Origin: Bacteroidales bacterium
Lineage (GTDB): Bacteria > Bacteroidota > Bacteroidia > Bacteroidales > Bacteroidaceae
Assembly: GCA_015060835.1 (NCBI GenBank)
Contig: SUXT01000001.1
Span: 5,277 to 69,276, forward strand
Direction of reading: 5' to 3'
DNA: 64,000 nucleotides
A program made the translations under genes and the position numbers. A model generated the notes under the pieces. It had not been told where the DNA came from. It ran no database searches and saw only the letters and a list, made by a program, of their open reading frames with translations. Shown piece by piece: positions 16,362 through 53,036 of the stretch (position 1 is its first letter; every line of letters begins with the position of its first letter).

Positions 16362-16413
16362 AGTGTAGTTTTGTGCGGTTGTGTTTCTTGTGCAGGGTGG
16401 TTGCTCCATGCAA

Positions 16414-17133: not shown

Positions 17134-17162
17134 GGTTATCGTTTTTTTGTAACTGTTGCTCT

Positions 17163-17774: not shown

Positions 17775-17816
17775 GATAGAATAATGTTATGTATAAGTTA
17801 CTTGAAATATTGTTTC

Positions 17817-35920: not shown

Positions 35921-38900
35921 ATGAAAATAAAAGGATGTTTTCCATTATTTAAGTCAAACATTATTGCGCGTATTCAAATATATGTGCTAATGATTTTTCT
36001 ATTCATTCCCAGCGCGGGCTTTTGTGTTGAAGATTATTATGATAGACACATAATAATAGCAGTTGACCAGAAAGCTATTCGTGACTATGGTGATTACTCA
36101 AAAGCTAGGGATTCGCTATTCGCTGCGATAAAAAGTTTTCTAAGGAATGATGGCAAAATATCAGGCATGAATAAAACCATGTCATATATTTCTCCGGGAG
36201 TATATTTTGACAAAGAAACAGATAAAGTTTCTTTGTTTGCATTTGGAATTCCTGGTACAGATCAATATTCATATGATGATAGTCCATACGCGCGACTTAA
36301 AAGAAGTTTGCGTTATGATTATTCTTTCAATAAAATATCAGACTCCTTAATAAAAAGTAGAGCTGTGTATACTAAGAGCGGTGATCTTGAAAAATTTTTG
36401 AATAGTTTAAAACTTGTTTTTTATAATGATGAAATCCATAAACAAAAAAAACAGTATGGAAATTGTATTCTGAGTTTATCGCATTATGTAGATCCGTTGA
36501 TTATAAATCATATAGATGCTTCTGTAAAAGCGCGCGAATACTATCTTTTTATTGTTACTGATTATACATCTGGTGGTGGAGCTAACGATACAGGAGATAT
36601 CCGTAGAATGGAAGAACTGCTTGGTATGAAAAAACCAAATAGTAAAAGAAACCTATCCGATTTTAATACTAATGTAAATAATTTAATTTCAAAATATAGT
36701 CGTACAGAGATACTTAAAATACTGCCGTCAGGTTTCGGAGAAAGAGACCAGGTTGATCAGATTCAAGATTTTCCTATTATTAAAGGTAAGAAATTGTTGC
36801 TTGCCGGCAGCGAATGTTCCACATTATTTGTTGCTTCTGATATTAGATTGAAGCAATTGGAACTTGATGAGCCTTTTTATAATCTTCAGCCATCAAAGAT
36901 AACATTTGCGCATAGTGGAGATATTGTTCTCGAAAAAATAATGTTCACTATAAAGGATAAAAAAGGGAAAGTGCTTTTGAATGAAATCTTTGATGATTCC
37001 GAACAGCTCAAAGCAATGTATAATAAGACTGATAAAGGATATGAAATACCTGCTGTAAATGAATTAAATATAAGTAATTTAGCTGTTGGAGATTCTCTCT
37101 TTTTTGATTATGTGTTTTACACTAAATCAAGTAATGAAAATGGAGCGAATACAGTGCTTCCATATGTGTTTGTGGCAAATAAAGAATATTTAGTAACTGA
37201 TGATGTTTTTGTTCCCCGACCGCAAATGTCTAATTCGGATTTAGCGATGATATTTTTATCTATTTTGATTATCTTGTCAGTGGGTACAATACTATTGTAT
37301 TGGCTTTATAAAAAACGTGGACAGAACAGAGTCGTGAATCTTGATTTTAAAATCTGGCCTATAACTAACGAACGTTTCATGGAAGTTAAGAATAAACAGG
37401 TTTTAAAGTACGACTGTTGGTATTGGGATGGTCAAAGAAGAGACCATAATATTCGTGTAACAGGAAATTTAAATATTGAGGAAAAATCTTGGGCTAAAAA
37501 ATTCAAGTATATTGTAGAATTTTGGATTGAGGATATAGATGCGAATGCCGATTTTTCATTCCGTCCCAGTCTTCAAAAAAGAGAAGCAAATGGAAATGTA
37601 CGTGATTCCCGTCAATGGTACCCGGTACAGGAAGATTCTGACGGAACCGGTAATTTCAGTTGTGATGCGAATGTGTTTATAAGTGATGGCGAGAAACCTT
37701 CTCTTACAAAAGTACCTAATTTTAGTTTCGATAATATTTTGGAATTGAAGGTGAAGGTTAGAGTGAAAATGGTTGACAATGACGGCAAATTCATTAAATT
37801 TGTGAAAATTTCAAACAGTGACACAGATTGCATTGAAAAAGTTTATTCATTCATTGTTAAGCCGAAACTTGAAAATAGCAATGTTTGGATGGCATTTGAC
37901 CCGGGAACAACAGGATCATGTGCTGCATTCGGTGTATCAGCTCTTCCCACCGATTCAGATGATATTTTCTTGGCAATAAATAGGCATGAAAGTGAATCTG
38001 GTGATATCATCAATGATCCCTTGTTCCCCTCAAGGATAAGGATAAACAACAAATCCAAGCGTCTTTTTGCCAATACTCCCGCTCCTGCTGAACAGCTTAT
38101 CGAGGGAGAGGATTTTGATTTTGGAAATAAGGCCGAGATTTTTTGGAAAGCAAAGTCGAGCAACTGTTTCCAATCCATTAAAAAACTATTGGGTTATACA
38201 AACCTTCAAAAAATAGTAGATTCTCAAGGTCGTATTTCGGAAATTTCAGGACAAGATTTGGCGCATTTGTTGGTGAAAGGTTTGTATAAACACACTAAAG
38301 AATATATCGAATCAAATGCAAATAACTTCCAGAATATTTCTTCAATGTTTATGAAGAATGGTTCTTTCCATCCGCAACGTGCTATTGTAGCTGTGCCTAA
38401 CAATTATACACTTGTGAAAATACAAGAAATGGTTGATAGTGTCAAGAGAATTGGCGCATTCAATGAAGTGCACTACATTTATGAGTCAGAGTCCGTAATG
38501 ATGACTTATATAAGGAGCAATTGGAAACTTTTATTTGAACAAAGAGATGAACAGCAAGAGAAAGTCTATATAGTCTTTGATATGGGTGGTGCAACAATAA
38601 ATGCCACTGCTTTCAAATTGAATGTTTATCCTGATATTGTCAGAGGCAAGGCTAATGATATCAGCAGTATTGATGTAGAGACAATATCAAAAATTGGTTA
38701 CGGTGTCGGAGGTGATGATATTGACTACGCAATCATACAATTGATCTACGGAATTCCAACAATAAAAGCCCTTATTGCTGATGTAGAGAAGCATCAACGT
38801 GAACATAAAACAGCGCTTATAGAGTTGGCCCGCAAGATAAAACTGAGTTGGATAAGTTCTTATAATGGCAGTAGAAAGGCCGGTGGCATAACAAATAATA

Positions 38901-39859
38901 TTCATGACTTTTGGACAGAATTAGGTAATACATTTAAATACTCGTTTAAATTAAGTATTCCAATGTATACCGAAGAGGATGCTGCTTACTTAAATAAAGA
39001 AAGTGAAAAACATACTTTAATGAAGAAGTATGTACTTGATTCCGTAAAAAATGCTGTAATGAACTTATTGTCCACAATAGAGAATAAGTCAGATATTGTA
39101 TTGATAATGAGTGGTCGCAGTGTGTTGTATCCCGGTATAAACGGAGCTGTTGATGCAGCGTTGACATCTGCAGGCTGTGAAAAGATTGATAAGTGGAAAG
39201 GGTACTGTGATAAAAATGGAGTATTCGATTCGGAAAAGGTAAAATCTGCTGTAGCTATAGGAGCATGTTGGTATGCAATGTATAGCGACAGAATAAATAT
39301 GATTAACAATATAGTAACCACATCTTTTGGCTATATTGATTATGTTGAAGGTGAACAGAAATTTATTCCAATCGTGGAACGAAATAGCAGATATGACGCT
39401 AATGGCGAGTGTTCTGGCTTTGTTCAAACCATGGGTAGTACTCTTAGAACAGTGCGACTTGTTCAAATGCTAGGAATGAATTACGATGAAATATATTCTA
39501 CTCCCATCAAACACATGATGAATGTGCTTGATGAAGTACTTCCTCAACAGATTAACACATATGTCAACAAAGTAGAGATAACTGTTGATAATAAAAACAA
39601 CTTCTCATACACGATTTATGACGGTGTCAATGAAATAACAAAAATGAATAATCCTCATTCGCGTCTTGGCGACAACGATGTTAAGACTGAGATTGTAGAT
39701 GAAAACAGTTCAGCCTATGTTTATGCAACGCTTAACGAAAATGACTTGAATGTAAATAAGAATCAAGAGACTACATCGTCCGATGTCGAAACAACTCATG
39801 CAAATGAAGGTGCAACTAAAACAATAATACTTGAGAAAAATACAACAAAACGGTTCTAA
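35921..39859 (+). CDS. Giant bitopic membrane protein: exported N-terminal region (vWA-like fold without MIDAS?) - TM - cytoplasmic beta-rich region - Hsp70/actin-fold ATPase domain
   Basis: 1312 aa. N-terminal hydrophobic segment IQIYVLMIFLFIPSAGF. Internal TM LAMIFLSILIILSVGTILLYWLY followed by KKRGQNR. Hsp70 NBD motifs appear in order: MAFDPGTTGSCAAFG, AIVAVPNNYT..EMVDSVKRIGA, VYIVFDMGGATINATAF, GVGGDDIDYA, IVLIMSGRSVLYPG, AVAIGACWYA. Confidence 0.8.
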   Translation: MKIKGCFPLFKSNIIARIQIYVLMIFLFIPSAGFCVEDYYDRHIIIAVDQKAIRDYGDYSKARDSLFAAIKSFLRNDGKISGMNKTMSYISPGVYFDKETDKVSLFAFGIPGTDQYSYDDSPYARLKRSLRYDYSFNKISDSLIKSRAVYTKSGDLEKFLNSLKLVFYNDEIHKQKKQYGNCILSLSHYVDPLIINHIDASVKAREYYLFIVTDYTSGGGANDTGDIRRMEELLGMKKPNSKRNLSDFNTNVNNLISKYSRTEILKILPSGFGERDQVDQIQDFPIIKGKKLLLAGSECSTLFVASDIRLKQLELDEPFYNLQPSKITFAHSGDIVLEKIMFTIKDKKGKVLLNEIFDDSEQLKAMYNKTDKGYEIPAVNELNISNLAVGDSLFFDYVFYTKSSNENGANTVLPYVFVANKEYLVTDDVFVPRPQMSNSDLAMIFLSILIILSVGTILLYWLYKKRGQNRVVNLDFKIWPITNERFMEVKNKQVLKYDCWYWDGQRRDHNIRVTGNLNIEEKSWAKKFKYIVEFWIEDIDANADFSFRPSLQKREANGNVRDSRQWYPVQEDSDGTGNFSCDANVFISDGEKPSLTKVPNFSFDNILELKVKVRVKMVDNDGKFIKFVKISNSDTDCIEKVYSFIVKPKLENSNVWMAFDPGTTGSCAAFGVSALPTDSDDIFLAINRHESESGDIINDPLFPSRIRINNKSKRLFANTPAPAEQLIEGEDFDFGNKAEIFWKAKSSNCFQSIKKLLGYTNLQKIVDSQGRISEISGQDLAHLLVKGLYKHTKEYIESNANNFQNISSMFMKNGSFHPQRAIVAVPNNYTLVKIQEMVDSVKRIGAFNEVHYIYESESVMMTYIRSNWKLLFEQRDEQQEKVYIVFDMGGATINATAFKLNVYPDIVRGKANDISSIDVETISKIGYGVGGDDIDYAIIQLIYGIPTIKALIADVEKHQREHKTALIELARKIKLSWISSYNGSRKAGGITNNIHDFWTELGNTFKYSFKLSIPMYTEEDAAYLNKESEKHTLMKKYVLDSVKNAVMNLLSTIENKSDIVLIMSGRSVLYPGINGAVDAALTSAGCEKIDKWKGYCDKNGVFDSEKVKSAVAIGACWYAMYSDRINMINNIVTTSFGYIDYVEGEQKFIPIVERNSRYDANGECSGFVQTMGSTLRTVRLVQMLGMNYDEIYSTPIKHMMNVLDEVLPQQINTYVNKVEITVDNKNNFSYTIYDGVNEITKMNNPHSRLGDNDVKTEIVDENSSAYVYATLNENDLNVNKNQETTSSDVETTHANEGATKTIILEKNTTKRF

Positions 39860-39880
39860 ATTTATAAATTGAAGATTATT

Positions 39881-41968
39881 ATGAAAAGAGCAACTTTATA
39901 CTTTATTCTTATTATCTGTACCACATTTTGTTTTATATGTACAGCAAATGGTCGAAATGAGAATATTGAATTCAACCAAGAAGGTTGTAAATTAGAAAAT
40001 AATGGTGTACAATATTTTAAAATTAATGAAAATAGAGTCGTTTTTACCGGTGACGCTCTATATTTGAATGCTACAAAGAATGATAATATAACAATTAATA
40101 CGAATGATCCTAAAATAAAACCCATTCTTTCAGGCAATAAATATTATCGTGAGATAAATACAAATAATAAATTTGATATAGTAGTACTAAAAAAATACAA
40201 CAAACTAACTATTTACAACAAGAAGAAGAATAATAACGATACTATAAACTTAATTACTTTTGAAGCTTATGACGACACTTTACATCTAAAAGAAATAATT
40301 GAAACAGCGCAAATAAAATCTGACTTTCGTAAAGGTGGCTCTAAATCAAGAAGAGGTGCCGGCGACGATACAACTGATCAAAATGATACAATAATTCATC
40401 AGAATGATACAATAACTTTGGATTTATCATTAGGTAATCAATATTGGTCATTCGATGGAAGACTTATGTTGGGAACCGATACTATTGAAAATATTGTATT
40501 GAATAAAGATAAAAAAGATAATAAGATCAAGTTGCCGTTGAACACTTCTTTGCGTGACTCTCAAGAACTTTTCATCACAGGAAAACTTAAATATGGGGAA
40601 TTTGAACTTGATGCGAAGATTTTTAGTAAGAGATTGAGCGTCAAAGAGCCAATTGCCCTCTCTTTTTGGGGTAAAGCAAAAGAATGGTTCGTAGCTAAGC
40701 CTCTTTGGGTTGTAATTTTGTTAGGTGTCGCTGCGTTATTGTTGTTGGCCTTAATTGTATTCATAATCATTCTTGCTACAAAAAAATGCAGAAAGAAAGA
40801 GAATAATGATGACGGCAATTCGGATAATGGTAATAAAGGAACATCAAAAGATAATGGTAATAAAGGAACATCAAAGGATAATGGTAAAGCTCCTTTAAAT
40901 AAGGGAAAAAATAACGTTTCACCAAAACAGGAATCAGGAAAAGAAAAAAATGAAGCACCCACTTCCAATGAAGACGTTAAGTCTCCTCAGATAGCCGACA
41001 AGCTAAATGGAATAAGTGATAAACTTGTAGAAATAGAAAAGAAACTCAAAGAATCTACAAAATTCAACGATATTGAGAAAAGACTCAATGATATTGAGAC
41101 AAAGCTCAAAGACGACAGTAAATTCAAAAATATAGAAACAAGAATCAAGAGTATAGATGAAAAATTAGATGCGCCTAAAAAACTAAAAGAAACAGAAGCT
41201 GCTTTAGAAAAAACCAAAAAAGATTTGGAGAGTTCTAATAAAAAGAATACGGAACTTAGTTCAGATTTGTCAGTAGCTAAAGAAAACATTAGAACATTAG
41301 AAAAGGCTCAGGAGGTGTTTTCGTCCAGAATAACATATGTGCCTTTTGCTGAAGAGTATTGCAAGAAAATACAAAAACTGATTAGTGTTGCCGATCAAAT
41401 ATCTAAAGAGGCGAATGCATTGTATAGCTCTTCATCAATAGATGATCCTTGGCACATAATGAAGGCTATAACCAAATATAGTGTGGCTATATGTGGTATT
41501 GACATAGAGCAATTCTACACCGAAGTTAGAATGATAGGTAGCGGGCAGGTTGTTCTAAACGGTACGATGTTGTGCCAATATAATAAAGGAACCGATGAGA
41601 ATGAACTTAAAAATTCGACTAAGAACTATTTTTTCAGCACCTACCTAAGCCGATATATAGATGCTTTGGTCGTTTTCAATGAAACACTTATCGGTATGGA
41701 TAGATTGGTAAACGGTATTTCAAAAAGCGATGTTGCAAAATTCGTGCAATTCCGAGATAGAATTAACGAAATATTGTCCTCTATAGAAATAACTGTCAAT
41801 TCAGTGAAGTTGTTCGAGCCGGTAGGCCAAAAATTATATTTGCAGGCCGAATCAGGTTCTTATGGCAACTTTGAATCAGGTACAATCGTAGAAGTAGAGA
41901 ATTGTGTTGTATACCTGACAGGGTCTACAGCTCCATCTACCAAAATTAGAGTAAAAGTTCAAGAATGA
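39881..41968 (+). CDS. Bitopic membrane protein: exported N-domain - TM - low-complexity linker - coiled coil with tandem repeats - C-terminal globular domain
   Basis: The ATG at 39881 (MKRATLYFILIICTTFCFICTANG) is preferred over the TTG at 39869. TM LWVVILLGVAALLLLALIVFIIILAT followed by KKCRKKE. NGNKGTSKD occurs twice. It has repeated KFNDIEKRLNDIETKLKD-type heptad units. Confidence 0.75.
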   Translation: MKRATLYFILIICTTFCFICTANGRNENIEFNQEGCKLENNGVQYFKINENRVVFTGDALYLNATKNDNITINTNDPKIKPILSGNKYYREINTNNKFDIVVLKKYNKLTIYNKKKNNNDTINLITFEAYDDTLHLKEIIETAQIKSDFRKGGSKSRRGAGDDTTDQNDTIIHQNDTITLDLSLGNQYWSFDGRLMLGTDTIENIVLNKDKKDNKIKLPLNTSLRDSQELFITGKLKYGEFELDAKIFSKRLSVKEPIALSFWGKAKEWFVAKPLWVVILLGVAALLLLALIVFIIILATKKCRKKENNDDGNSDNGNKGTSKDNGNKGTSKDNGKAPLNKGKNNVSPKQESGKEKNEAPTSNEDVKSPQIADKLNGISDKLVEIEKKLKESTKFNDIEKRLNDIETKLKDDSKFKNIETRIKSIDEKLDAPKKLKETEAALEKTKKDLESSNKKNTELSSDLSVAKENIRTLEKAQEVFSSRITYVPFAEEYCKKIQKLISVADQISKEANALYSSSSIDDPWHIMKAITKYSVAICGIDIEQFYTEVRMIGSGQVVLNGTMLCQYNKGTDENELKNSTKNYFFSTYLSRYIDALVVFNETLIGMDRLVNGISKSDVAKFVQFRDRINEILSSIEITVNSVKLFEPVGQKLYLQAESGSYGNFESGTIVEVENCVVYLTGSTAPSTKIRVKVQE
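40823..40888 (+). repeat. 27-bp tandem repeat, 2.4 copies, in frame
   Basis: gataatggtaataaaggaacatcaaaa / gataatggtaataaaggaacatcaaag / gataatggtaaa. Confidence 0.85.
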
Positions 41969-41990
41969 TAAAACTATAAATATAACTATT

Positions 41991-43346
41991 ATGAGTATTA
42001 AAAAATTAATATTGATTTCAATCGGTGTTGTAATTTTAGCAAGTGTGGTAATTAGTATTATTACTCCTGAACCAAAATACAGCAACAACTTTAAGGCATC
42101 TTATCCCGAAGTGTTAAAGTTACAGACTTCAAACATTCCCGGAGCAGAGACTTCTGATGTGCCCCAAGTAGACGTTATTGTTGATTTCTCGGGAAGCATG
42201 AGGGGATTTATCGATTACAGTGGAGTGAACAATGGCGCTGTAGACAATAGTAATTTTATAAGTACCGTTTCGGACTTTCTTACAGAATACGAATCCAATT
42301 TTAAAGCCAAGAGTATAGTTTACTGTGGCACTAAGAAGTACGGAAAGGACGAATTCAGAGAGGGAATGCGCAACAAAGGGATTTTTCATGGCGGAACTAC
42401 TGAACTTGACAAACTTATAGAAAAAACGGTTTCGATGGCAAGTGACACTTCTGTCAGTGTGTTATTGTCAGATATGGTACTCTCTTATGGCCCTAACGTA
42501 ATTAGAACTTCAAAGAATCCCAGGTACAATAAAGATGCTCTTGATGGCCTCTCATCTGCAGTTAAAAGTTGTATTACAAAAGCAAAGGATAAGGGGCTCG
42601 ACATAATGTTAGTGCAGTATTTGTGCGATTTCAGTGGACAATACTATTACAATTATTTGGAGAACCTTCCCAATAACCGAAGCGACTACAATGGTGCTTT
42701 AATGAAAAACAGACCATACTATTTTATGCTAATCGGTAAAAAGAGGCACCTTGTAAATTTGTACGATAAGTGTGTGAAGAAAGCCGAGTATGTATACACT
42801 TCATTTGATGTAGCAGAAAATCCCAATGACAAAAAAGCGTTTTCTATAGCTGAAAAGAAAAACAAAAACGGCGTGAATTATTGGGAGCAAGGAACTGAAG
42901 AAACAGAATCTCCCGGAACATTCGTAACGAAACTTGATTTGGAGGGCGAGAAGAATGCTTTTGCAGTAAGATATGATAATTTTATCCTGCCTACATTTAT
43001 AAATGGTTGTGATATTGTGGTAAATACAGACTTTGGTCATATAGAAGATATGGTCTATGATGCAAATTCAAAGACTTTAACATATACCTACTGTTTACCT
43101 AATTTTGAAAAACTTAAAAATGCAGACAATATTGCATCTATTGATGTCATGTATAATAGTTCTGCAAATAAGTGTGATGCAATATCTCTTGACGACGATG
43201 TAAACATGGAACTTGCTAAACTGGAGGGAAAAACATGGTCGGTCAGCGCAGTGGTAAGCGCTATCGATGGAGCTTATTATGGCAAGAGAGGACGCGAGGC
43301 TTGTATAACAGTATCAAGAACAAAATTAATATTCAAGAAAATCTAA
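41991..43346 (+). CDS. N-terminally membrane-anchored von Willebrand factor A (vWA) domain protein with an intact MIDAS motif
   Basis: 451 aa. TM LILISIGVVILASVVISIITP. VDVIVDFSGSM is a DxSxS MIDAS motif, and VSVLLSDM is the later strand typical of vWA. The C-terminal roughly 200 aa is unassigned. Confidence 0.7.
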   Translation: MSIKKLILISIGVVILASVVISIITPEPKYSNNFKASYPEVLKLQTSNIPGAETSDVPQVDVIVDFSGSMRGFIDYSGVNNGAVDNSNFISTVSDFLTEYESNFKAKSIVYCGTKKYGKDEFREGMRNKGIFHGGTTELDKLIEKTVSMASDTSVSVLLSDMVLSYGPNVIRTSKNPRYNKDALDGLSSAVKSCITKAKDKGLDIMLVQYLCDFSGQYYYNYLENLPNNRSDYNGALMKNRPYYFMLIGKKRHLVNLYDKCVKKAEYVYTSFDVAENPNDKKAFSIAEKKNKNGVNYWEQGTEETESPGTFVTKLDLEGEKNAFAVRYDNFILPTFINGCDIVVNTDFGHIEDMVYDANSKTLTYTYCLPNFEKLKNADNIASIDVMYNSSANKCDAISLDDDVNMELAKLEGKTWSVSAVVSAIDGAYYGKRGREACITVSRTKLIFKKI

Positions 43347-43362
43347 AAAATATTTTTATATT

Positions 43363-43794
43363 ATGGAAACAATAAGACGATTTGCAGAATTTTTCTATGG
43401 GTTTTGTGTAGACATGAAACTTAAGTTATTTACACCTGCTCCTCAAGGTGATGATGGTTTAGCATGGTTGTTGATATTTTTACTTGGCTCCTCGGCGCTA
43501 TTTGCTGCAATTTATTATTTTGGGGTAGAAAGAGATGCAAGAAACGCAACACCTAAAAATTATTTGTCATTATATATCGCAGGTTATTTGACATTGGTCG
43601 CTGTTAATTTTGTGGGGCTTGCTTCGATAGCCAAGGATGGCGAACTCCCTTTAGTGGATATATTTTATGTATCATTGATTGATATCATTTATTATTCCAT
43701 TTTGTTTGAAATCCACTCATTATGGATGAAGGGATTATCAAAGAATTCCAAGTGTATAGATATTATATCAATATTGTTTAACAAGAATATATAA
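43363..43794 (+). CDS. Small polytopic membrane protein
   Basis: 143 aa with three to four hydrophobic segments. It is tightly packed in the operon, with 16-nt and 4-nt gaps. Confidence 0.65.
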   Translation: METIRRFAEFFYGFCVDMKLKLFTPAPQGDDGLAWLLIFLLGSSALFAAIYYFGVERDARNATPKNYLSLYIAGYLTLVAVNFVGLASIAKDGELPLVDIFYVSLIDIIYYSILFEIHSLWMKGLSKNSKCIDIISILFNKNI

Positions 43795-43798
43795 TCTG

Positions 43799-45388
43799 AT
43801 GAATATGATGAATAATTTATATGTATTTGCAATAGGTGGTAGTGGAGAGCGCGTAGTTAAATCTTTGGTTATGATGCTCACTACCGGAATGAAAATAGGA
43901 GCACAACGTATAAAACCGGTGTTTATTGACAACGATGTTGATTCTAAGGCGTTTAAAACATGTTGCGAACTTATAACGTATTATAATGCTACACCACAGT
44001 CGGATCACAAGATGGGTGCCAATACATTGTACCTTCAGGAGGACCAGGATTCTGCAACTTGGGGCAGTTTTTTCCATGTTCCAATAGACAAGCCTATTGT
44101 GCTCAATAAGGCAGGGGAGGCTATTGGCAATCTTCGAAATGTTATAGGGTATACCAGAGGAGAAACAGCTGCTCATAAATCAATTGAAGAGGAAATGAAT
44201 CTACTTTTCACTGATGACGATTTGAATATGCCGTTGAGTGTCGGTTTTGTTGGTAATCCCAATATAGGAAGTATAGTCTTGAATTCTCTTTCGTTGGATG
44301 GTGATGGTAGTACAGATTTTGGAAAAATTTTGGCTAATATCTCGGCTAATGATGGAGCTATAGTTATAGGTTCTCTTTTTGGTGGCACAGGAGCTGCCGG
44401 GCTTCCGTTGGTAATAAATAAATTAAAATCGTTGCCTCCGGCTAAAAAACCTATATTGGGTGGCATTGCTGTATTACCTTATTTTAATACAGATCAGCAA
44501 GGCGATAAGCATCCCGATCTTGATACAAAAAAATGGGATGTAAAATCCGGTTCCTTTGTCGCAAAAACTCGTGCCGCCTTGATGTACTATGATGATTATA
44601 TGAAGTATGATTATGACTGTTTATATTATGTCGGCAATAGTCAGGAACTGGATACATTCCATCATTGTGTCGGTGGTGAAAAACAGGATAATCCTTACCA
44701 TATCGTAGAAATGATGTCTGCACTCTCTGTTATTGATTTTTCTATGGCTACACATTTGGATAAAATAGAATATAAGTCTCCTATCTGGGGATTTACAGAC
44801 CAAAATAATTCGAATGTTTCAGGAATCTATAATTCTGATTTGGCAAAGTCTTTAGTTAAATTCAGAATGTTGAAAGAGATGTTCTATTCGTCGGGTGAGT
44901 CATTTTTGAAGTGGGCGATAGATATAAGGAAAGATTACTGTGATAGAACTGGGTTCAATGAGCCTTTCCGACTTTCGGTTTGCGGACAAAGCAGTGCAAA
45001 TTCACAAGCGTGGGGAATTGCCAATTTGTTTAGAGAATTTGATAAGTGGATGAGTGAACTCTCTTCTGATAGAGTAAGCAGACCATTTTTGCTTTTCAAT
45101 AGTTCGGCACAAAATGTAAACGGCGATAACATTACTAAAGAATTCTATTCTGAGCGTAAAGAGGACGAGGTAAATTTTGGTATTGCAAAATCTGAATTAA
45201 AAGGTTTTTTCAAGAAAACTCTTGCTGCTGTAAAAGCTGATATCGCAAATGAAATGCAGAATGCCTATAATCAACTTTACCCAGGAGGAATAAAACAAGC
45301 AGATACTGCGAAAACATTGTCTATTTTGTTGAAAATAATATCAAAGGCATTGGATAATGTGTTGGAAAAGAATTGTATAGAATTATAA
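43799..45388 (+). CDS. Divergent FtsZ/tubulin-superfamily GTPase-like protein
   Basis: 529 aa. LYVFAIGGSGERVVKSLVMM compares with FtsZ IGVGGGG.NAV. AIVIGSLFGGTGAAGLPLVINKL compares with the FtsZ/tubulin signature GGGTG(T/S)G. ILGGIAVLPYF compares with FtsZ VGVVTKPF. The three motifs occur in the correct order and spacing. Confidence 0.7.
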   Translation: MNMMNNLYVFAIGGSGERVVKSLVMMLTTGMKIGAQRIKPVFIDNDVDSKAFKTCCELITYYNATPQSDHKMGANTLYLQEDQDSATWGSFFHVPIDKPIVLNKAGEAIGNLRNVIGYTRGETAAHKSIEEEMNLLFTDDDLNMPLSVGFVGNPNIGSIVLNSLSLDGDGSTDFGKILANISANDGAIVIGSLFGGTGAAGLPLVINKLKSLPPAKKPILGGIAVLPYFNTDQQGDKHPDLDTKKWDVKSGSFVAKTRAALMYYDDYMKYDYDCLYYVGNSQELDTFHHCVGGEKQDNPYHIVEMMSALSVIDFSMATHLDKIEYKSPIWGFTDQNNSNVSGIYNSDLAKSLVKFRMLKEMFYSSGESFLKWAIDIRKDYCDRTGFNEPFRLSVCGQSSANSQAWGIANLFREFDKWMSELSSDRVSRPFLLFNSSAQNVNGDNITKEFYSERKEDEVNFGIAKSELKGFFKKTLAAVKADIANEMQNAYNQLYPGGIKQADTAKTLSILLKIISKALDNVLEKNCIEL

Positions 45389-45404
45389 AATTGGTTAGAC
45401 CATT

Positions 45405-48400
45405 ATGAATAAATTTGAATTTGGAATGAAAGCCGTACAACAAGATGGTTTAAACGGCGATTTTAAAATATACGATAGCAATTTGGGTGGCAATTATAAC
45501 CCCTATAATTCAACCTATTTCGATAGAGAGGAAAACAGAGTAGTTTGTCCAGATAATGGAAGGATAACATCTATACCTTCACCTTATGCTCGTATGCATA
45601 TAACAGACCTTGCATTTAGGGAAGCAAACAGTGGTAGTGCAAATGGTGAGCCGCCCATAGCTCTGTCTCTTGATTATAATATAGCATTGTCCCATTGTCT
45701 GGATATTTTCGAGATGTTGTTTTATTCAGATGCAGAAGACTTGGAAGAAAAGGGTGTTTCGGTAGAAAAGATAGATCTTGTAAGAACCAATACTACAAAT
45801 GTAGAGGAAAAGGCATTATTGAATGCTAACCCTAAACTTAAAGCGTATATTTCAACGTTGGATTTATATCGCGATGAATATGTGAGCGTTTTGGATCACA
45901 TCAGAAATGACAAACATGTAAATCAATATTTGTTTGATTTTAATTCGTTGTATCTGTTTAAATATAAAGGAAAGGTTTTTGCGTCAACATCGCCGCTTAC
46001 CGGATTCTTTGCTACAGCCAATTGTAACATAGGGGATCTGGTGATTAACGGTAACAATATTCTTAGCTCAAATCCTAATCATATAAGAGAAATTGGACAG
46101 CGCACATCAGAATTCCGTGAATTCATGTACTCTTTGTTGTTTCATACAGGTTTGTGTCATATATTTAAGAATTTGTTTATATATGTAAAGAATAGCTTGG
46201 ACGCAAATCAAATAGCAACCATAGACCAGAACCCGTTCCAAAATCAAAGGCAATACCTTAAGTTTAACATTGGCGGGCAACATTTGCTTCAAGTTAAAGA
46301 TAATCTGTATATCAGACCGGGCGGAATAGATTGTTCATATTTGAAATATTATCTTTATCTTGCCCCTCCTGTTGATTTTGCAATAACGGAACAGGATTAT
46401 GCTACAAAATTAAATGAACGCCAATTTAACGGTCAGTTGGTTTCGTGGTATGGTGTAAATGATATTTTGTCAGATGCGCTATTTGTTTTGACGTATGATA
46501 TAAATGACAATTATGTATCGGTGCCATACGTAGATATAAATAAAGATTGTAAGGCATACAAACGTTGTCTTTTACCAATAAAACGAGGAGCTCTTGACTT
46601 CTTTACAGTAGACGAGTTGTGTAACGGTTTGAGAATAGAGAAAAGGGATCATAGTAAATATGTAGCAACCCTTAAAATAACTTTGTTGAATGGTGGAACT
46701 ATAACATTGCGTCGTGAGTACACAGCCGGTGATGCTTGCTATCCTAATGGCAAGGTATTCCAAGGTGATGATATGAAGCCTTTTGCATTCGGTATTTATC
46801 CGTTTGTGAAGTCTACTCAATTTGCCAATATGTACAAAGTGTTATTCTATAATCATTTTGATAAATATTCACTTAAATTTTATAAAAAGGATGCAAATGG
46901 TATAAATCCATTGCTTGAAACAGAAACGAAAGTAAATAAGACTAATAACATCCATAACCAAGAATTTGGTGTCAATTGCGAGTATCACGACATCAATATA
47001 CAAACGAATATCCTTGAGTTTGCCGAAATTGAAGTTTCAGGATTAACATCGCTTATTATTCCCAATCTGCGCATGGTCGGGGAAGCCAATGATGGCGCAA
47101 GTATTGCAGTTGATCATAATACAGAAGTTACTGTGGCTATAGACTTGGGTACATCCAATACTTACGTTGCATATAGTCGCAGGCCTTTCGGTGGCGGTAC
47201 CATAGCTGAAAAAGATATTATTCCCATTTCGACGCATCATAGCGGTAATGTCGAATGGAATGAACTTACATTCATGAATAAAAAGTGTGAACAAGCAGAT
47301 TTGGCAACAGCACCGGAAAAGAATAGGGAAGATTTGTATTTGCGGGTAAGTGATTTCGATAATAAGCCCGTAGATACATGGCTATCTTCTCAGTTGAACG
47401 AATTTATTCCTTCACGCATTGATCCAAACGGTGATAATTATAGTTTCCCAATTCCGACTGTTATAAATTTCTTGCGCAGGAATTGTGGTCGCCCTCAATT
47501 CGATCCTAATGCCCAAGAATCTCCGTTGATAGATTTTGCTATACCTTTTGCATATTATGAGAGAGGTATAAGAACCGGAGGAAGTGGTGCGAATGTATAT
47601 GATTTGATAAGCAATGGAAGCGACTTTAAATGGTATGAAAAGCGCAATAATAAGGGTACTCTCGTTAAAAATGAAGTATTCGAGGCGGCTTTCAAGGCTT
47701 TCTTGTCTGAATTGATGTTCATCGTCCGTTGTCACTTGATTTGCAGTGGGCATGATTTGACGCTATGCAAAATAATCTGGTCGTATCCGTTATCATTCTC
47801 GAGTTCATTGCGTGATGAATACGATAGAGCGTGGAAAGAGGCATACAAAAAATATATTAACCCAACAGTCGCCAATAATATTGATGATTATGTTAAGTAT
47901 ACAAATGAATCCCGTTCTCCTATCTATGCGTGTATAAATAATCCGGGAGCTATAAACCATTTGACAGTTTTGTTGGATATTGGTGGTGGCTCAACCGATG
48001 TAATAGGATACAAAAATAATAATGTCCAATTCGTTACTTCATTCGGTTTTGCCGGCAACGCCTTGTATTTGGCATCAGGTATGAATACAGTCTCAGAAGG
48101 AGATCAAATGGACGGTACATTACTAAAGAGGTTTGTTATAAAACAGAGAATTTTCAGTGGTATAGGTTCCAACCCCAATTCTGCCGAAATGGAGGAGAAA
48201 AAAATCAGTACTTCTGATTCTATATGCACTCTTATGAATTATGGTTTCGCTAAGGCAGAATATGATTTTGTGAAGATTTTTCAAAATGATTCAGCGCAAT
48301 TTATGTTGCAACTGCATAATGCAGCCATAATATATCATGTGGCTCAGTTGTGCAAAATTTATTCTCCTGATGAACTTCCTGATACAATATATCTGACCGG

Positions 48401-48938
48401 TAATGGCTCTAAACAATTTGAACTTAATATAGCCAAGGATTCTATGATAAGAAACATCTTCGCTGCTGTTTATGAAGATAGAACAATAAATGAAATTGAC
48501 AAAATAAATATATGCAGCAATCCTAAACCTAAGGCAGCAACTGTAAATGGTGCATTGTTGGGCTTGAGTCAAGGTACATTGGCTACAAACAGGGAGTCTG
48601 CTACTAATAGAGTGGTAATGCTTGGTGATTGCGCCCACTCTTATAGAGTTGACCCGATTGTTGATTATGCCGTTGTTGATAATAAAGACGGTTACAAGGA
48701 AGCTGTTAAGGAAAATGTCAATAAGTTCTTTGAATACTTCTATGATAAGGTATATACAACAGCAAGTCCTGTAAGAACTATAGAACATGTGAAGGAGGCT
48801 ATTGACTATGTATCTGGCGATCCGAAATTGAATCTACCTGATAATGGTATTATTTCAGATTCGTTCTTCTTCCAATACATAGCTTTGGTTATGCAGAAAT
48901 TGTCAATGGACTTGGTTAAAGCAGGTTATGCCAAGTAA
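45405..48938 (+). CDS. Large soluble protein: unassigned roughly 560-aa N-region plus C-terminal Hsp70/actin-fold ATPase domain
   Basis: 1177 aa. VTVAIDLGTSNTYVAY (phosphate-1), IIWSYPLSF, LTVLLDIGGGSTDVIGY (phosphate-2), TIYLTGNGSKQF and ATVNGALLG (adenosine region) are present. I saw no TM segment. Confidence 0.75.
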   Translation: MNKFEFGMKAVQQDGLNGDFKIYDSNLGGNYNPYNSTYFDREENRVVCPDNGRITSIPSPYARMHITDLAFREANSGSANGEPPIALSLDYNIALSHCLDIFEMLFYSDAEDLEEKGVSVEKIDLVRTNTTNVEEKALLNANPKLKAYISTLDLYRDEYVSVLDHIRNDKHVNQYLFDFNSLYLFKYKGKVFASTSPLTGFFATANCNIGDLVINGNNILSSNPNHIREIGQRTSEFREFMYSLLFHTGLCHIFKNLFIYVKNSLDANQIATIDQNPFQNQRQYLKFNIGGQHLLQVKDNLYIRPGGIDCSYLKYYLYLAPPVDFAITEQDYATKLNERQFNGQLVSWYGVNDILSDALFVLTYDINDNYVSVPYVDINKDCKAYKRCLLPIKRGALDFFTVDELCNGLRIEKRDHSKYVATLKITLLNGGTITLRREYTAGDACYPNGKVFQGDDMKPFAFGIYPFVKSTQFANMYKVLFYNHFDKYSLKFYKKDANGINPLLETETKVNKTNNIHNQEFGVNCEYHDINIQTNILEFAEIEVSGLTSLIIPNLRMVGEANDGASIAVDHNTEVTVAIDLGTSNTYVAYSRRPFGGGTIAEKDIIPISTHHSGNVEWNELTFMNKKCEQADLATAPEKNREDLYLRVSDFDNKPVDTWLSSQLNEFIPSRIDPNGDNYSFPIPTVINFLRRNCGRPQFDPNAQESPLIDFAIPFAYYERGIRTGGSGANVYDLISNGSDFKWYEKRNNKGTLVKNEVFEAAFKAFLSELMFIVRCHLICSGHDLTLCKIIWSYPLSFSSSLRDEYDRAWKEAYKKYINPTVANNIDDYVKYTNESRSPIYACINNPGAINHLTVLLDIGGGSTDVIGYKNNNVQFVTSFGFAGNALYLASGMNTVSEGDQMDGTLLKRFVIKQRIFSGIGSNPNSAEMEEKKISTSDSICTLMNYGFAKAEYDFVKIFQNDSAQFMLQLHNAAIIYHVAQLCKIYSPDELPDTIYLTGNGSKQFELNIAKDSMIRNIFAAVYEDRTINEIDKINICSNPKPKAATVNGALLGLSQGTLATNRESATNRVVMLGDCAHSYRVDPIVDYAVVDNKDGYKEAVKENVNKFFEYFYDKVYTTASPVRTIEHVKEAIDYVSGDPKLNLPDNGIISDSFFFQYIALVMQKLSMDLVKAGYAK

Positions 48939-48946
48939 TAATATAT

Positions 48947-48988
48947 ATATCAGACTTTGATACTGTGAATGGTATCAAAGTCTGATAT
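48947..48988 (+). terminator. Perfect 17-bp stem hairpin inside the island gene array (terminator, attenuator or processing site)
   Basis: atatcagactttgatac-tgtgaatg-gtatcaaagtctgatat lies 9 nt after the stop at 48938 and 14 nt before the ATG at 49002. No clear T-run follows. Confidence 0.5.
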
Positions 48989-49001
48989 GAAATAACAAAT
49001 T

Positions 49002-49628
49002 ATGGGAATGTTTATTAATGAGAATGAAACTGCAGAAAAGCAATTTAGAGATATTGATAAAACTCTGAATGGCTTGTTTGATAGAATTGATTCGGTTGAG
49101 GAGAAACTTGAAACTTTAAAGCTTGTGTTGGGCAAACTGTCTGACAGTTTGCAAGAGATGTCGTTATCTATAAAAACGGCATTAAATCAAGCGTGTGATG
49201 TAAATGAGAGTATAGAGACATCATGCACAATTCCTGCTTCTGAAGAAAAAGAGCCAATACACGAATGTGCCCCTGAAGAGAAAGTCGGTGCAGACGTAAA
49301 AGTCGAAAGTGAGTTTGAAATACGCTTTTTGGGTGCACCTTCGGGTAGTGGTTTTGAAGTGATGAACGAAAGAACCGAAAAAAGTATTTCTACCTTATAT
49401 ATACTTGAAATTGACAGAGCCAATAAGATAGCATATTTCTATCCTAATAAAGAAAATATTGCCAAACTTGTATATGATAAGCCGCATAATCTTGAACCCG
49501 TATGCGACATTGAAGGGGTGGTTGATTCTTTGTGTGACTTGTATATAAGTAAAGATGATTATGGTGTTTTGCATCTTGAAGCTCCGGATTATTGGAAAGT
49601 TCAAAAAAAATGTCTTATTAAATGTTAG
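49002..49628 (+). CDS. Hypothetical protein, N-terminal coiled coil
   Basis: 208 aa. It has a heptad-like N-terminus (LFDRIDSVEEKLETLKLVLGKL), an acidic linker and a small C-terminal domain. Confidence 0.6.
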   Translation: MGMFINENETAEKQFRDIDKTLNGLFDRIDSVEEKLETLKLVLGKLSDSLQEMSLSIKTALNQACDVNESIETSCTIPASEEKEPIHECAPEEKVGADVKVESEFEIRFLGAPSGSGFEVMNERTEKSISTLYILEIDRANKIAYFYPNKENIAKLVYDKPHNLEPVCDIEGVVDSLCDLYISKDDYGVLHLEAPDYWKVQKKCLIKC

Positions 49629-49632
49629 TTGA

Positions 49633-50712
49633 ATGAAGAAAATATTAATTTACATTTGTGTTCTTATTTTGGTGGTAGTTATGATCTGGCCGGAGCAGAA
49701 TCTGAAAATAGCTTCTGTAGTGGATGGTAATACCGTAGAATTGAATAATGGAACAACTGTGCATCTTATAGGTGTTAATAGTACTAACGAAGGTAAAATC
49801 GAACTGGAGGGATTGATGGGAAAAAGTTTGTTGTTGGTTCCCGATAAAACTGCATTCTTTAATCCCGATCTTATTGACAAAACCTCTACGGTATATGCTT
49901 ACGCTGTTGTTGAAGATGACAATGTGTGCATAAACGCATCGTTACTCAAAAATCGCTATTCTAATCTCGAAGAGAACTCATATTTGAATGATAGTCTGAA
50001 TTCATTCAGAAAATATGCCGAGTCAGGGCGAAGAGCTTTGACACCTGAGCCTACCCCAACTCCTAAACCAGTCATAGATTATCAGGAGGAGGAGATATAT
50101 CTCGATCCGTATATACCATCTTCTGAACGCAAGCATAGTGCATGGTATAATGATGGAAGTATGAATTTGGAGATGCTTGAGGAGGCTTGTGACTTTAATT
50201 TGCCATATACAAAAAAATTTGCAAATGAACTTGCTGCACGTTCACCTGGTAGCTTCAATCCAGGACAGATATGTGAAATTTTTGCATATTGCTATAAGAA
50301 ATGGAGTTATGTCAACGATCCCGCAGATGTTGAATATGTCGCTCGTGCATCAGAAACAATTCATGGTTCATTAATTGGTGATTGCGACGATTACGCAGTT
50401 TTGATGGCGTCATGTATACTTGCAGTTGGAGGTCGCGCTTGTATAAACACTGGTTATAATTCCAGTGGTGGACATGCTTTTACCGAGGTTGATATATCCA
50501 ATTTTGATGAAAATGAAGTCTATAGTGTTATATGTAAATATTTCCCTGAGTATAATATACAAAATCTGAATTACAGAATAGACGGACAACACAAGTGGTT
50601 GAATCTGGATTGGCAAACTCAATATCCCGGAGGTAAATATTATGATTGTTCTTATAAGTGGGACAGTTATCCTTATGAAAAAGGCAAGTGGGTTTGGAAA
50701 AAATTGAGATAA
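49633..50712 (+). CDS. Membrane-anchored/exported protein: SNase-like OB-fold (catalytic residues apparently not conserved) plus transglutaminase-like cysteine protease domain
   Basis: 359 aa. N-terminal hydrophobic segment ILIYICVLILVVVMIW. VVDGNTVELNNGTTVHLIGVNS resembles the thermonuclease DGDT...RL.GIDAPE strand pattern without the Arg/Asp/Glu. GDCDDYAVLMASCILAVGGRA ... GGHAFTEVD fits the transglutaminase-core Cys/His arrangement. Confidence 0.6.
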   Translation: MKKILIYICVLILVVVMIWPEQNLKIASVVDGNTVELNNGTTVHLIGVNSTNEGKIELEGLMGKSLLLVPDKTAFFNPDLIDKTSTVYAYAVVEDDNVCINASLLKNRYSNLEENSYLNDSLNSFRKYAESGRRALTPEPTPTPKPVIDYQEEEIYLDPYIPSSERKHSAWYNDGSMNLEMLEEACDFNLPYTKKFANELAARSPGSFNPGQICEIFAYCYKKWSYVNDPADVEYVARASETIHGSLIGDCDDYAVLMASCILAVGGRACINTGYNSSGGHAFTEVDISNFDENEVYSVICKYFPEYNIQNLNYRIDGQHKWLNLDWQTQYPGGKYYDCSYKWDSYPYEKGKWVWKKLR

Positions 50713-50794
50713 TAAGAAACTGTTTGAATTTTCTTGAAAGAAAACTATATTTGCGATGTTCATTTCGGCTTATTTAACGGAGTTTTTCTCCTTC

Positions 50795-50834
50795 AAACCT
50801 CAGCCATACAAGTTTGCTTGTATGGCTGAGGTTT
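50795..50834 (+). terminator. Terminator-like hairpin closing the island operon
   Basis: aaacctcagccatacaag-tttg-cttgtatggctgaggttt, a perfect stem of about 18 bp, lies 83 nt after the stop at 50712. Confidence 0.65.
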
Positions 50835-51022
50835 GGCGTCGATTGAGTCTATTTAATGTCATTAAAGTTGCTTTTACTCGTTTTGCAATTTGTGAAAAAG
50901 TTCACATTGCGCTCGCTTAATCACAGCTTTTGGCATCTTTTCTTTCTTATTTTTTGGAAATAGCCCGCTATTCCCTGCAAAATGTGAAAGAAAATCTACT
51001 CAAAATAGCTCTCAAATAATTC

Positions 51023-51228: not shown

Positions 51229-52266
51229 ATGAATTTTATGAGAAAAATTGTTTCGTTTGGATTACTTGTCGTATCTGCAATGTTTTTTATGGCAGCTGTC
51301 CCGTTTTCTAAATGCGGAGTAAAAAAGAATTATGCAAAGATAGAACGTTTGACAAATAATGACTCTGTATATTTTGTTCCCCATGAAATAAAGAAGACAG
51401 ATGTTGTCGATTTATTAAAAAGAGAGACATTATATAATATAACAGAAACATTTGCCCCCTTGCATTATGCAGATGCAGTATTTTTGGATTCCGTAGTATT
51501 GAGTACATTGGCATCCAAACCATTGGAATGTACAAAAACATGGAGATATAAGACTATAGATGCTTTGTATTACTCTCCGGATGTGTATGTAGAAGGATTT
51601 GTTAAAACAAGTAAGGGGTTGAGTCCTCGTTATTGCTTGTATATAGATACTAAATCGAGAAAAGCACACATTACTTTGCTTAAAAATGACAAAGTTTATA
51701 CATCTGATGTATATTCGCAACAGGATTCTGTAAATATTGATGCGGTAATAGAAATTTTTAAAAACTATTCAATAAAGAGTGATATGAAGGAAACAAAACA
51801 AGAAGATGTTCTTTTCCCGCCATCTCCCGACAAAAATAGTTCCACATATTTAAAAGATAAAACTTCGGAGTATATATTTAATGCTATTAAGAATTGGGAA
51901 TTATCAAGCGTGATGTTGATTGATCCTATGGGTAACAAGGGAAAACTGATGCATGGTTTTACTATATTTGAATCATGCGACCGTATTTCTACTGAAAATT
52001 CAAAGAGAATAAAGGATATTCTTGTGGCTTCATCGAGTTATAAACAAAGTGATGTCGTTAAAAATTCAACATTCTTACCCGATTATGCGTGTCGTTTTTC
52101 CAAGGATGGTGAATATGTAGATGTTCTTGTTGCTTTATATTGTGATGATATTAAAATATATCATAAGGATAAAGAGTACACATTGGATATATCTCCCTCA
52201 CATAAAGCGTTTGCGAACTATATCCAAACGATATTCCCTAATGATAAATACATAAAAAAATATTGA
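51229..52266 (+). CDS. Exported hypothetical protein
   Basis: 345 aa. N-terminal hydrophobic segment IVSFGLLVVSAMFFMAAV. I recognise no motif. Confidence 0.6.
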   Translation: MNFMRKIVSFGLLVVSAMFFMAAVPFSKCGVKKNYAKIERLTNNDSVYFVPHEIKKTDVVDLLKRETLYNITETFAPLHYADAVFLDSVVLSTLASKPLECTKTWRYKTIDALYYSPDVYVEGFVKTSKGLSPRYCLYIDTKSRKAHITLLKNDKVYTSDVYSQQDSVNIDAVIEIFKNYSIKSDMKETKQEDVLFPPSPDKNSSTYLKDKTSEYIFNAIKNWELSSVMLIDPMGNKGKLMHGFTIFESCDRISTENSKRIKDILVASSSYKQSDVVKNSTFLPDYACRFSKDGEYVDVLVALYCDDIKIYHKDKEYTLDISPSHKAFANYIQTIFPNDKYIKKY

Positions 52267-52268
52267 TT

Positions 52269-53033: not shown

Positions 53034-53036
53034 TAT

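Follow-up and report, generated by a model that had tools for sequence, protein, structure and literature searches.

A compact tubulin/FtsZ-like GTPase encoded beside an actin-fold ATPase in an accessory, AT-rich gene cassette of a Bacteroidales bacterium

Introduction

Among the divergent branches of the tubulin/FtsZ superfamily, the one known as FtsZl1, or Tubulin_2 (PF13809) in Pfam, combines clear T1-T5 loops with inserts between T1 and T4; its T6-H7-T7 stretch resists alignment, and its C-terminus is helical (PMC2875224). FtsZl1 proteins typically reach ~1,000 amino acids (aa), that of Bacteroides caccae having 913 aa, and one locus of Magnetospirillum brings together two vWA genes and a 1626-aa DnaK-like gene (PMC2875224 supplement). 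The FtsZl1 operons carry vWA and OmpA genes, and a membrane-remodelling role was proposed for them by Makarova and Koonin 2010 (PMC2875224). As no member of the Tubulin_2/FtsZl1 branch has a known function, any handle on it is useful. Here we describe gene T (43799..45388, + strand), which lies in a cassette of eight genes on a contig of a Bacteroidales bacterium (SUXT01000001.1); "the window" denotes the whole stretch of 64,000 nucleotides that was analysed. The cassette genes are lettered in their order A, B, C, D, T (for tubulin-like), F, G and H.

Tubulin, vWA or HSP70 components have also been recognised in proposed assemblies for biological conflict that depend on nucleoside triphosphates (Kaur, Burroughs, Iyer and Aravind 2020, PMC7159879). 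Our literature searches found no paper on the short branch to which T belongs, on the pairing of T with F or on the association of this pair with ZorAB-like genes; for a system uniting tubulin, ZorAB, HSP70 and vWA components, only the general precedents PMC2875224 and PMC7159879 were found.

The protein encoded by T has a tubulin fold with an intact nucleotide pocket, its obligate partner is an actin-fold ATPase, and the predicted topology of the set spans the membrane. With a probability of roughly 0.6, we consider T to be a GTP-binding assembly component of an accessory system linked to the cell envelope, probably a conflict system.

A tubulin/FtsZ-type GTPase domain in gene T

Gene T starts with an ATG and encodes a protein of 529 aa, for which hydropathy indicates neither a signal peptide nor a membrane helix and which is therefore predicted to be cytoplasmic. 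An earlier note, made from the sequence of the window alone, had proposed an FtsZ/tubulin-like GTPase from three hallmark segments, FAIGGSGERV (residues 10-19), GSLFGGTGAAGLP (191-203) and GGIAVLPYF (221-229). All three are genuine, and are invariant or nearly so in an alignment of 71 T homologues reaching down to 23% identity, from which all conservation counts given here are drawn. The residues G13, G14, G149, G152, P154, G157, S192, F194, G195, G196, T197, G198, A199, G201, P203, G221, P227 and Y228 are the same in 71/71 sequences, and G16 and R18 in 70/71 each. Such constancy across the alignment marks the motifs as selected features rather than the product of chance.

The loops of the nucleotide pocket can be followed one after the other along the + strand, the T2-like and T3-like ones being additions to the segments listed in the earlier note. 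The T1-like glycine loop G13-G14-S15-G16-E17-R18 (43835..43852) holds either T or S at position 15. After strand 2 comes the T2-like D44-N45-D46 (43928..43936), with D44 kept in 69/71 sequences and D46 in 71/71; its place after this strand, and not an alignment, suggests that it is equivalent to N43-T44-D45 of FtsZ. The T3-like loop G149-F-V-G-N-P-N-I-G157 (44243..44269), with four invariant residues, is aligned by hhalign to GAGANPEVG of FtsZ and falls within a segment of the structural model, 147-164, that is of low confidence. Strand 4 and the T4 signature loop, S192-L-F-G-G-T-G-A-A-G-L-P203 (44372..44407), contain nine invariant residues, and both HMMER and hhalign align this segment to GGGTGTG in FtsZ and CetZ. 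The T4 signature is usually written GGGTG[ST]G or [SAG]GGTG[SA]G; the exact PROSITE-style pattern is not matched by T, in which the local sequence is F-GGTG-A-A-G. The T5-like P227-Y228-F229 (44477..44485), after strand 5, is placed by HMMER on LPF of CetZ, and F229 is found in 64/71 sequences; FtsZ has K-P-F at the equivalent position. Given the invariance of the glycine loops, T very likely binds GTP.

Direct sequence comparisons gave consistent matches of low score. The Pfam family PF00091 matches T with E=0.006 and 17.3 bits (cut-off 33) over residues 180-231 only, PF13809 gave no match at E<=0.1, and in scans with NCBIfam and PADLOC no match of T, C, D or F rose above noise. Searching the PDB with profiles from 32- and 71-sequence alignments retrieved CetZ (3zid) at E=0.008-0.011 and FtsZ chains at E values of 0.3-7. 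With hhalign, the T family profile was aligned to a profile of 11 FtsZ sequences, compiled from plasmid-collection records, at E=0.021 over 66 columns, and to E. coli FtsZ alone at E=0.035. Both alignments are confined to the T3-T4-S5 block, so that T6, H7 and T7 are not mapped by sequence; inside this block GGTGAAG falls onto GGGTGTG, and the helix and strand between T3 and T4 stand at matching spacing.

The relatives of T are more telling. Scanned singly against Pfam at E<=0.01, 60/71 match PF00091 and 47/71 match PF13809, and none matches any other family. The best Bacteroidota relatives reach ~25 bits on PF13809, for a cut-off of 27. On a plasmid of Gloeothece verrucosa, a homologue detected by tblastn (E=1e-13, 25% identity over residues 5-322) clears the gathering threshold of PF13809 with 40.8 bits against 27 and is annotated as a "tubulin-like domain-containing protein".

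An AlphaFold2 model of T built from 32 sequences (predicted local distance difference test, pLDDT, 83.6; predicted template modelling score, pTM, 0.86) has the strand and helix order of the FtsZ GTPase domain. S1 (4-12), H1 (13-28), S2 (35-43) and H2 (50-63) are followed by an insert of ~80 residues, the T3 loop (147-164), H3 (173-180), S4 (186-192), H4 (196-210) and S5 (219-225), and then by H5 (250-268), S6 (274-278) and a final helix (302-314). When this model was compared with the PDB by Foldseek, the best 50 of 62 matches at E<=1e-3 were tubulin, gamma-tubulin, OdinTubulin, TubZ, PhuZ and CetZ, with probabilities of 0.97-1.0 for the matches listed. Against a viral library, the top eight matches included phage tubulin, FtsZ and PhuZ under these names, three of the eight having no informative name.

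One may ask whether the likeness of the motifs is a coincidence and T an unrelated Rossmann-like nucleotide-binding protein, as could be read from a Pfam match of T that stays below threshold, an hhalign value against FtsZ of just E=0.02 and Foldseek template modelling (TM) scores <0.4. This is effectively refuted by the 60 and 47 relatives that match tubulin-clan families only, by the one homologue that passes PF13809, by the membership in the tubulin/FtsZ family of the best 50 PDB matches out of 62 and of those top eight viral ones that have an informative name, and by the presence of five pocket loops in the right order and at the right spacing. The N-terminal ~315 residues of T form a tubulin/FtsZ-type GTPase domain with intact T1, T2-like, T3, T4 and T5 loops, and the assignment of T to the tubulin/FtsZ superfamily, in fold and in family, is made with high confidence. 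The earlier note had staked its proposal on a significant profile match to the superfamily and on a Rossmann-like GTPase fold in a structure model. The fold is present in the model; the profile evidence is indirect, coming from the relatives and from the Gloeothece homologue, with the scores of T itself below threshold.

Relationship to named families

The wording "FtsZ/tubulin-like" is right as to the superfamily; among named families, the closest to T is Tubulin_2/FtsZl1 and not FtsZ itself. T belongs to a large unnamed branch of short proteins (460-540 aa) beside it. Both share a divergent GTPase domain in which T1 and T4 can be recognised and are separated by inserts peculiar to the family, a T6-H7-T7 part that cannot be aligned with confidence, and an alpha-helical C-terminal part in place of FtsZ_C. 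Their operons are alike in being rich in membrane proteins and in containing OmpA/MotB-type proteins and a protein with the pattern of a metal ion-dependent adhesion site (MIDAS), of vWA type in FtsZl1 operons and a candidate vWA protein beside T; the giant DnaK-like neighbour in the Magnetospirillum locus and the homologue of T that passes PF13809 bring the two closer still. On other aspects they differ. T itself has no PF13809 match and its relatives in Bacteroidota remain below threshold, its 529 aa end in a helical region for which the model shows no long coiled coil, its cassette contains neither a P-loop GTPase nor a protein kinase as partner, and its obligate partner is an ASKHA (actin/Hsp70-fold) ATPase of 1,100-1,200 aa.

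For the length of the target, the best structural matches of T are TubZ (4xcq, TM 0.39), PhuZ and CetZ, which are likewise accessory, non-division members of the superfamily. Their identity to T is only 11-14%, however, and they possess the canonical C-terminal domain and the T7 acids, whereas T has no partner genes of the TubR/tubC type.

The branch is compact (~500 aa), newly defined as a part of Tubulin_2/FtsZl1, and very abundant. A word-indexed search found 493 homologues of T, all unnamed or "hypothetical", in Bacteroidales metagenomes. When 1.84 billion cluster representatives were searched with a profile, 1,938 T-family proteins were retrieved at E<=1e-3 and 1,519 at E<=1e-10, which corresponds to ~1,900 clusters at 50% identity. 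The family is present in at least 592 species genomes, mostly of Bacteroidota. The lengths range over 460-540 aa. The family is common in gut and environmental Bacteroidota, its distribution is patchy and strain-variable, and no homologue of T was detected in a phage collection.

A conserved module with an actin-fold ATPase

The cassette comprises eight same-strand genes (35921-50712) separated by gaps of 4-63 nt and followed by one of 516 nt. It lies in a region of ~35.9-55 kb with a GC content of 0.33-0.37, compared with 0.44-0.51 in the flanks, in agreement with the AT-rich operon noticed at first. Gene content was compared over 86 loci, made up of 80 fetched genome loci and of contigs around individual proteins. 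T is accompanied by F in 85/86 (BLASTP), by C in 83/86 and by D in 70/86 of them, and the order C-D-T-F holds in relatives at 23-33% identity.

Immediately after T, gene F (45405..48938, +) encodes a soluble protein of 1177 aa. Its phosphate motifs, DLGTSNT near residue 580 and DIGGGSTD near 858, together with the matches of its family profile to MreB (1.2e-4), actin, FtsA, Ppx and Hsc70 in the PDB and to FtsA and Ppx-GppA in Pfam, identify the C-terminal half as an actin/Hsp70-type (ASKHA) ATPase; the N-terminal 560 residues have no assignment. Upstream of T, gene D (43363..43794, +) encodes 143 aa with three membrane helices predicted from hydropathy, and its stop codon precedes T by 4 nt. 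Gene C (41991..43346, +) encodes an exported, membrane-anchored protein of 451 aa with a single membrane or signal segment at its N-terminus, which takes the form of a lipoprotein-like LxxC in most relatives. Its invariant residues D65xS67xS69...T137...D161 reproduce the MIDAS pattern of vWA domains. In a model of C (pLDDT 89.2), an alpha/beta domain carrying DxSxS...T...D precedes two beta-sandwich domains. Neither Pfam nor the PDB gave a sequence match for vWA in C, and Foldseek returned weak Ig/Fab matches to the C-terminal beta domains; the vWA label follows from the invariant DxSxS...T...D pattern alone.

The earlier note had placed T between membrane proteins and Hsp70-fold ATPases. The genes upstream of T do have predicted membrane helices. 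The two large neighbours, of 1312 aa (A) and 1177 aa (F), do bear ASKHA motifs and give weak matches to HscA, FtsA, MreB and Hsc70. Their best PDB matches are to MreB, actin and FtsA as much as to Hsp70, which refines the Hsp70 label to ASKHA.

C, D, T and F thus constitute a core across Bacteroidota that recurs sporadically in other phyla. The C-D-T-F order is found in Flavobacteriales, Sphingobacteriales, Cytophagales and Chitinophagales, as well as in stray genomes of Phycisphaerales, Lachnospiraceae, Leptospiraceae and Gracilibacteria. In Prevotella sp. oral taxon 299 F0039, the family member is flanked by the same succession of open reading frame (ORF) sizes. The mobilizable plasmid NC_014503.1 of Gloeothece verrucosa (39251-47534 of the record) shows the order D-T-F-G, with two coiled-coil proteins after the ASKHA giant, and related matches occur on Picosynechococcus plasmids. 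The presence of the module on plasmids in cyanobacteria indicates its spread beyond Bacteroidota on mobile DNA. In this fixed four-gene module, a GTPase of the tubulin fold and an ATPase of the actin fold are brought together across the membrane, and in most members a ZorAB-like stator is physically linked to it.

The end of the conserved core and the possible assembly of T

The alignment of many distant homologues to T stops at residue 311-323, which sets the end of the conserved core at I-D313-F314. The last part of this core (44684..44740, +), a candidate equivalent of H7/T7, consists of Q296-x-N298 and of the helix 302-314 with E304 and D313-F314. Q296 is found in 71/71 sequences, N298 in 68/71 and F314 in 69/71; position 304 is E in 68 and D in 3, and position 313 is D in 51/71 and H in 15/71. 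Other conserved residues of T are F253, K256, Y263-Y264, Y276-Y277-x-G279-D280 and G292. No T7 motif of the NxDxxD/E type is present in the T sequence, and I-D313-F314 is the nearest look-alike, with a superficial likeness to V-D-F-A-D in T7 of FtsZ. This is in line with the earlier remark that no obvious synergy-loop equivalent could be seen.

Beyond the core, residues 315-529 (44741..45385, +) are subfamily-specific and, by DSSP on the model, mostly alpha-helical. They have no Pfam match, and neither FtsZ_C nor Tubulin_C was found in T by the Pfam scan. A conserved helix (503-525) closes the protein, in which L510, L511, I514, S515, L518 and D519 are kept in the close subfamily.

These traits leave room for a T that does not polymerise, acting instead as a GTP-binding switch or pseudo-cytoskeletal subunit that would regulate the ASKHA ATPase F as a heteromer. 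Such a role would suit the lack of a conserved T7-type catalytic acid, D313 being kept in just 51/71 sequences, the helical and variable C-terminal part that stands where FtsZ_C or Tubulin_C would provide the activation domain, and the strict adjacency of T and F in 85/86 loci; in FtsZl1, T6-H7 likewise cannot be aligned (PMC2875224). We nevertheless consider it rather unlikely. The near invariance of E304 and the conservation of Q296 and N298, directly before the last core helix, make a non-canonical synergy residue possible. To our knowledge, moreover, all experimentally studied members of the tubulin/FtsZ superfamily self-assemble. For GTP-dependent self-assembly of T, we regard the chances as even.

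An accessory gene outside the division cluster

T shares with FtsZ the GTPase fold, the T1-T5 order and a gene that adjoins one for an actin-fold protein. The adjacency of T and F, like that of ftsZ and ftsA, suggests an analogous working pair of a tubulin-fold and an actin-fold protein, F being three times as large as FtsA. Beyond this, T differs from FtsZ in having no detectable pairwise similarity to it, no NxDxxD T7, no FtsZ_C and no C-terminal FtsA-binding peptide of the FtsZ type, and its gene is accessory, horizontally mobile and outside the division cluster.

The common superfamily and the actin-fold neighbour could still be taken as signs that T is a second division FtsZ with a specialised part in cytokinesis, a reading whose likelihood we consider negligible. 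With E. coli FtsZ as query (100% identical to database records), tblastn found nothing in the window at E<=10. T carries no FtsZ_C domain, and its AT-rich accessory cassette lies outside a cell-division cluster, flanked by a gene set that differs between otherwise identical contigs. One genome with a family member encodes a canonical FtsZ at another site: in Prevotella F0039, the T-family member at 623.7 kb and the canonical ftsZ at 1,548.9 kb lie 925 kb apart on one replicon. The earlier note had argued from its AT-rich operon that T is not the division FtsZ. This view is upheld by the Prevotella genome, the missing FtsZ_C/Tubulin_C match and the patchiness of the family, and an accessory, non-division role can be assigned to T with great confidence.

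Proposed role at the cell envelope

The link with ZorAB comes from the related loci. A ZorA-like gene follows the module in 54/86 of them; its product, of ~540 aa, combines a MotA/ExbB-like membrane part with a long helical tail. A ZorB-like gene follows in 49/86, and its product, of ~220 aa, combines a MotB plug with an OmpA domain. In PADLOC these genes match ZorB1 (2e-14) and ZorA2 (1.7e-9), and in Pfam MotA_ExbB and OmpA; PADLOC matches of this kind cannot tell Zorya from generic MotAB-type stators. Examples can be seen at 15747-18010 of locus L065 and 16157-18405 of locus L061. Homologues of ZorC, ZorD, ZorE, ZorF or ZorG occur in no locus examined, and in the cytoplasm NTPases of the tubulin and actin folds take the place of the nucleases or helicases of Zorya.

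The systems built on DO-GTPases and GAP1-N2 also place a tubulin-family protein with vWA, or an HSP70-family protein, in membrane-proximal multi-gene sets (PMC7159879). They are defined by a DO-GTPase together with GAP1, their tubulin versions come from Firmicutes and Actinobacteria (PMC7159879), and tubulin and HSP70 are separate themes in them, whereas the two co-occur in the cassette. No Walker A motif is present in the proteins A-H, and membership in the DO-GTPase/GAP1 systems was rejected on this absence of a P-loop.

We propose that the extracytoplasmic parts of the system, namely C and the N-terminal domains of A and B, joined in most relatives by the ZorAB-like stator, would sense or bind something at the envelope, and that the signal would pass the membrane through D, A and B. 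T would then bind GTP and, together with F, self-assemble or switch conformation at the membrane, as FtsZ does with the actin-fold FtsA. The nucleotide-gated assembly of T might set the threshold of an output or execute it, this output being an exported protease or a change of the envelope.

The purpose of such a system is harder to name. A role in inter-genomic conflict, directed at phages or at mobile elements, seems the most likely, although we hold it at somewhat less than even odds; it is favoured by the mobility and patchiness of the family, by the ZorAB link and by the precedent of conflict systems with tubulin, HSP70 and vWA components (PMC7159879). Integrases adjoin T-family loci (L001-3 and L065), and restriction-modification, Fic and ImmA-like genes are found as neighbours of T relatives; caspase genes also occur among the neighbours. 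More speculative, and rather doubtful at present, is the idea that T and F form the cytoplasmic core of a widespread undescribed family of envelope-coupled immune systems in Bacteroidota and on cyanobacterial plasmids. In most of these, an ion-driven stator of the ZorAB type would pass a signal from the envelope to a polymer of both folds gated by GTP and ATP, and the window would represent a subtype without ZorAB, in which a second, membrane-anchored ASKHA protein is used instead.

The main rival to a conflict role is a housekeeping-type machine that remodels the envelope or membrane, with T as a membrane-shaping filament; it might drive the formation of vesicles, the assembly of surface structures or the maintenance of the envelope. 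The vWA-like, OmpA/MotB-like and many other membrane proteins that the loci have in common with FtsZl1 operons fit this machine, the exported protease and the exported protein with a MIDAS motif would suit envelope processing, and no toxin or nuclease effector can be recognised in the cassette. We judge it unlikely nonetheless, as the family is patchy, strain-variable, low in GC and associated with integrases and plasmids, proteins of the ZorA-like layout, with a long helical tail, have so far been known from defence systems, and the adjoining genes are of the kind usual in defence or mobile regions.

A number of observations weigh against our overall explanation of T as an assembly component of an envelope-linked, probably conflict-related system. 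As for the fold, no single sequence test puts T itself over a curated tubulin/FtsZ threshold, and TM-scores of 0.2-0.39 with a root mean square deviation of ~10 Å show the Foldseek match to be local or topological rather than a tight global superposition. As for assembly, T has no FtsZ-type T7 motif, and its best candidate acid, D313, is H in 21% of relatives; without this motif and without FtsZ_C or Tubulin_C, a cooperative GTPase activated by polymerisation is conjectural. The vWA fold of C was confirmed neither by sequence searches nor by Foldseek. As for conflict, the window cassette lacks ZorA and ZorB, no protein of the window matching hidden Markov models of the ZorA- and ZorB-like proteins built from the related loci. 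No cassette protein rises above noise with the PADLOC defence models (G has a coiled-coil match at E=0.037), the cassette contains no nuclease or other classic effector, and the defence-island context is anecdotal.

The explanation opens hypotheses that can be tested, among them GTP-dependent assembly of T, an interaction between T and F, and phenotypes under phage or envelope stress, with Lepagella muris, Pedobacter and Prevotella F0039 as tractable isolates. The way in which divergent tubulins without a recognisable T7 work, and what motors of the ZorAB type couple to, would come within reach. Should the immune reading hold, it would describe a bacterial defence built from tubulin-like and actin-like assemblies; a machine serving envelope maintenance only would still be a new use of the tubulin fold, of narrower interest.

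Other genes of the cassette and its surroundings

To the core module, the subtype of the window adds the four genes A, B, G and H. The cassette begins with gene A (35921..39859, +). In its 1312-aa product, an extracytoplasmic domain lies between a signal or membrane helix (14-32) and a membrane helix (441-459), after which comes a cytoplasmic ASKHA ATPase. The latter matches HscA with E=3.6e-4 over residues 731-976 and carries the motifs DPGTTGS and DMGGATIN. A is restricted to the subtype of T found in the window (7/86 loci). In its exported domain of ~400 aa, segments of the form IIIAVDQ...FIVTDY resemble a vWA domain in which the MIDAS motif is degenerate. Gene B (39881..41968, +) encodes a bitopic protein of ~695 aa, the start codon being taken from the gene call in contig L087, with an exported N-domain, a membrane helix (283-301), a cytoplasmic low-complexity and coiled-coil part and a C-terminal domain; searches gave coiled-coil matches only. 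Just past the membrane helix, its cytoplasmic linker contains the tandem peptide GNKGTSKDN-GNKGTSKDN (window ~40830-40900).

On the other side of the module, G (49002..49628, +) encodes a soluble coiled-coil protein of 206-208 aa, with homologues after F in 41/86 loci. The 63-nt gap between F and G holds a perfect inverted repeat with a 17-bp stem (48947-48988), ATATCAGACTTTGATAC and GTATCAAAGTCTGATAT enclosing the loop CATTCACA; from its sequence, it could be an RNA hairpin for processing or attenuation, or a palindrome bound by a protein. The last gene, H (49633..50712, +), encodes an exported transglutaminase-like cysteine protease of 359 aa with an N-terminal hydrophobic segment and a Transglut_core match in Pfam of 24.4 bits (cut-off 23). 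H occupies the same position in loci L001-L005 and L093, and in other subtypes a trypsin-like protease stands at the end of the module.

A scan for sigma-70 promoters was uninformative, with 74 sites for 74 expected, and the window contains no tRNA genes. To the right of the cassette lies a caspase-like block (51229-54929, with a further caspase-like ORF at 57635-58513) that includes a 345-aa protein, a Peptidase_C14 protein of 254 aa and a caspase of 630 aa with a BACON domain, the last having a weak NCBIfam match to "caspase, EACC1-associated type" (3.9e-5). The caspase genes at 51229-54929 were considered as part of the system and rejected, being absent from 86/86 related loci and from the right of the cassette in contig L088. 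This contig carries an identical cassette and left junction, followed on the right by RecQ and other genes, and the caspase block missing there is thus a separate variable module. A 54-aa ORF directly after the cassette (50756-50920) is called in all the near-identical contigs L087-L090 and, being kept even where the genes downstream differ, may belong to the cassette.

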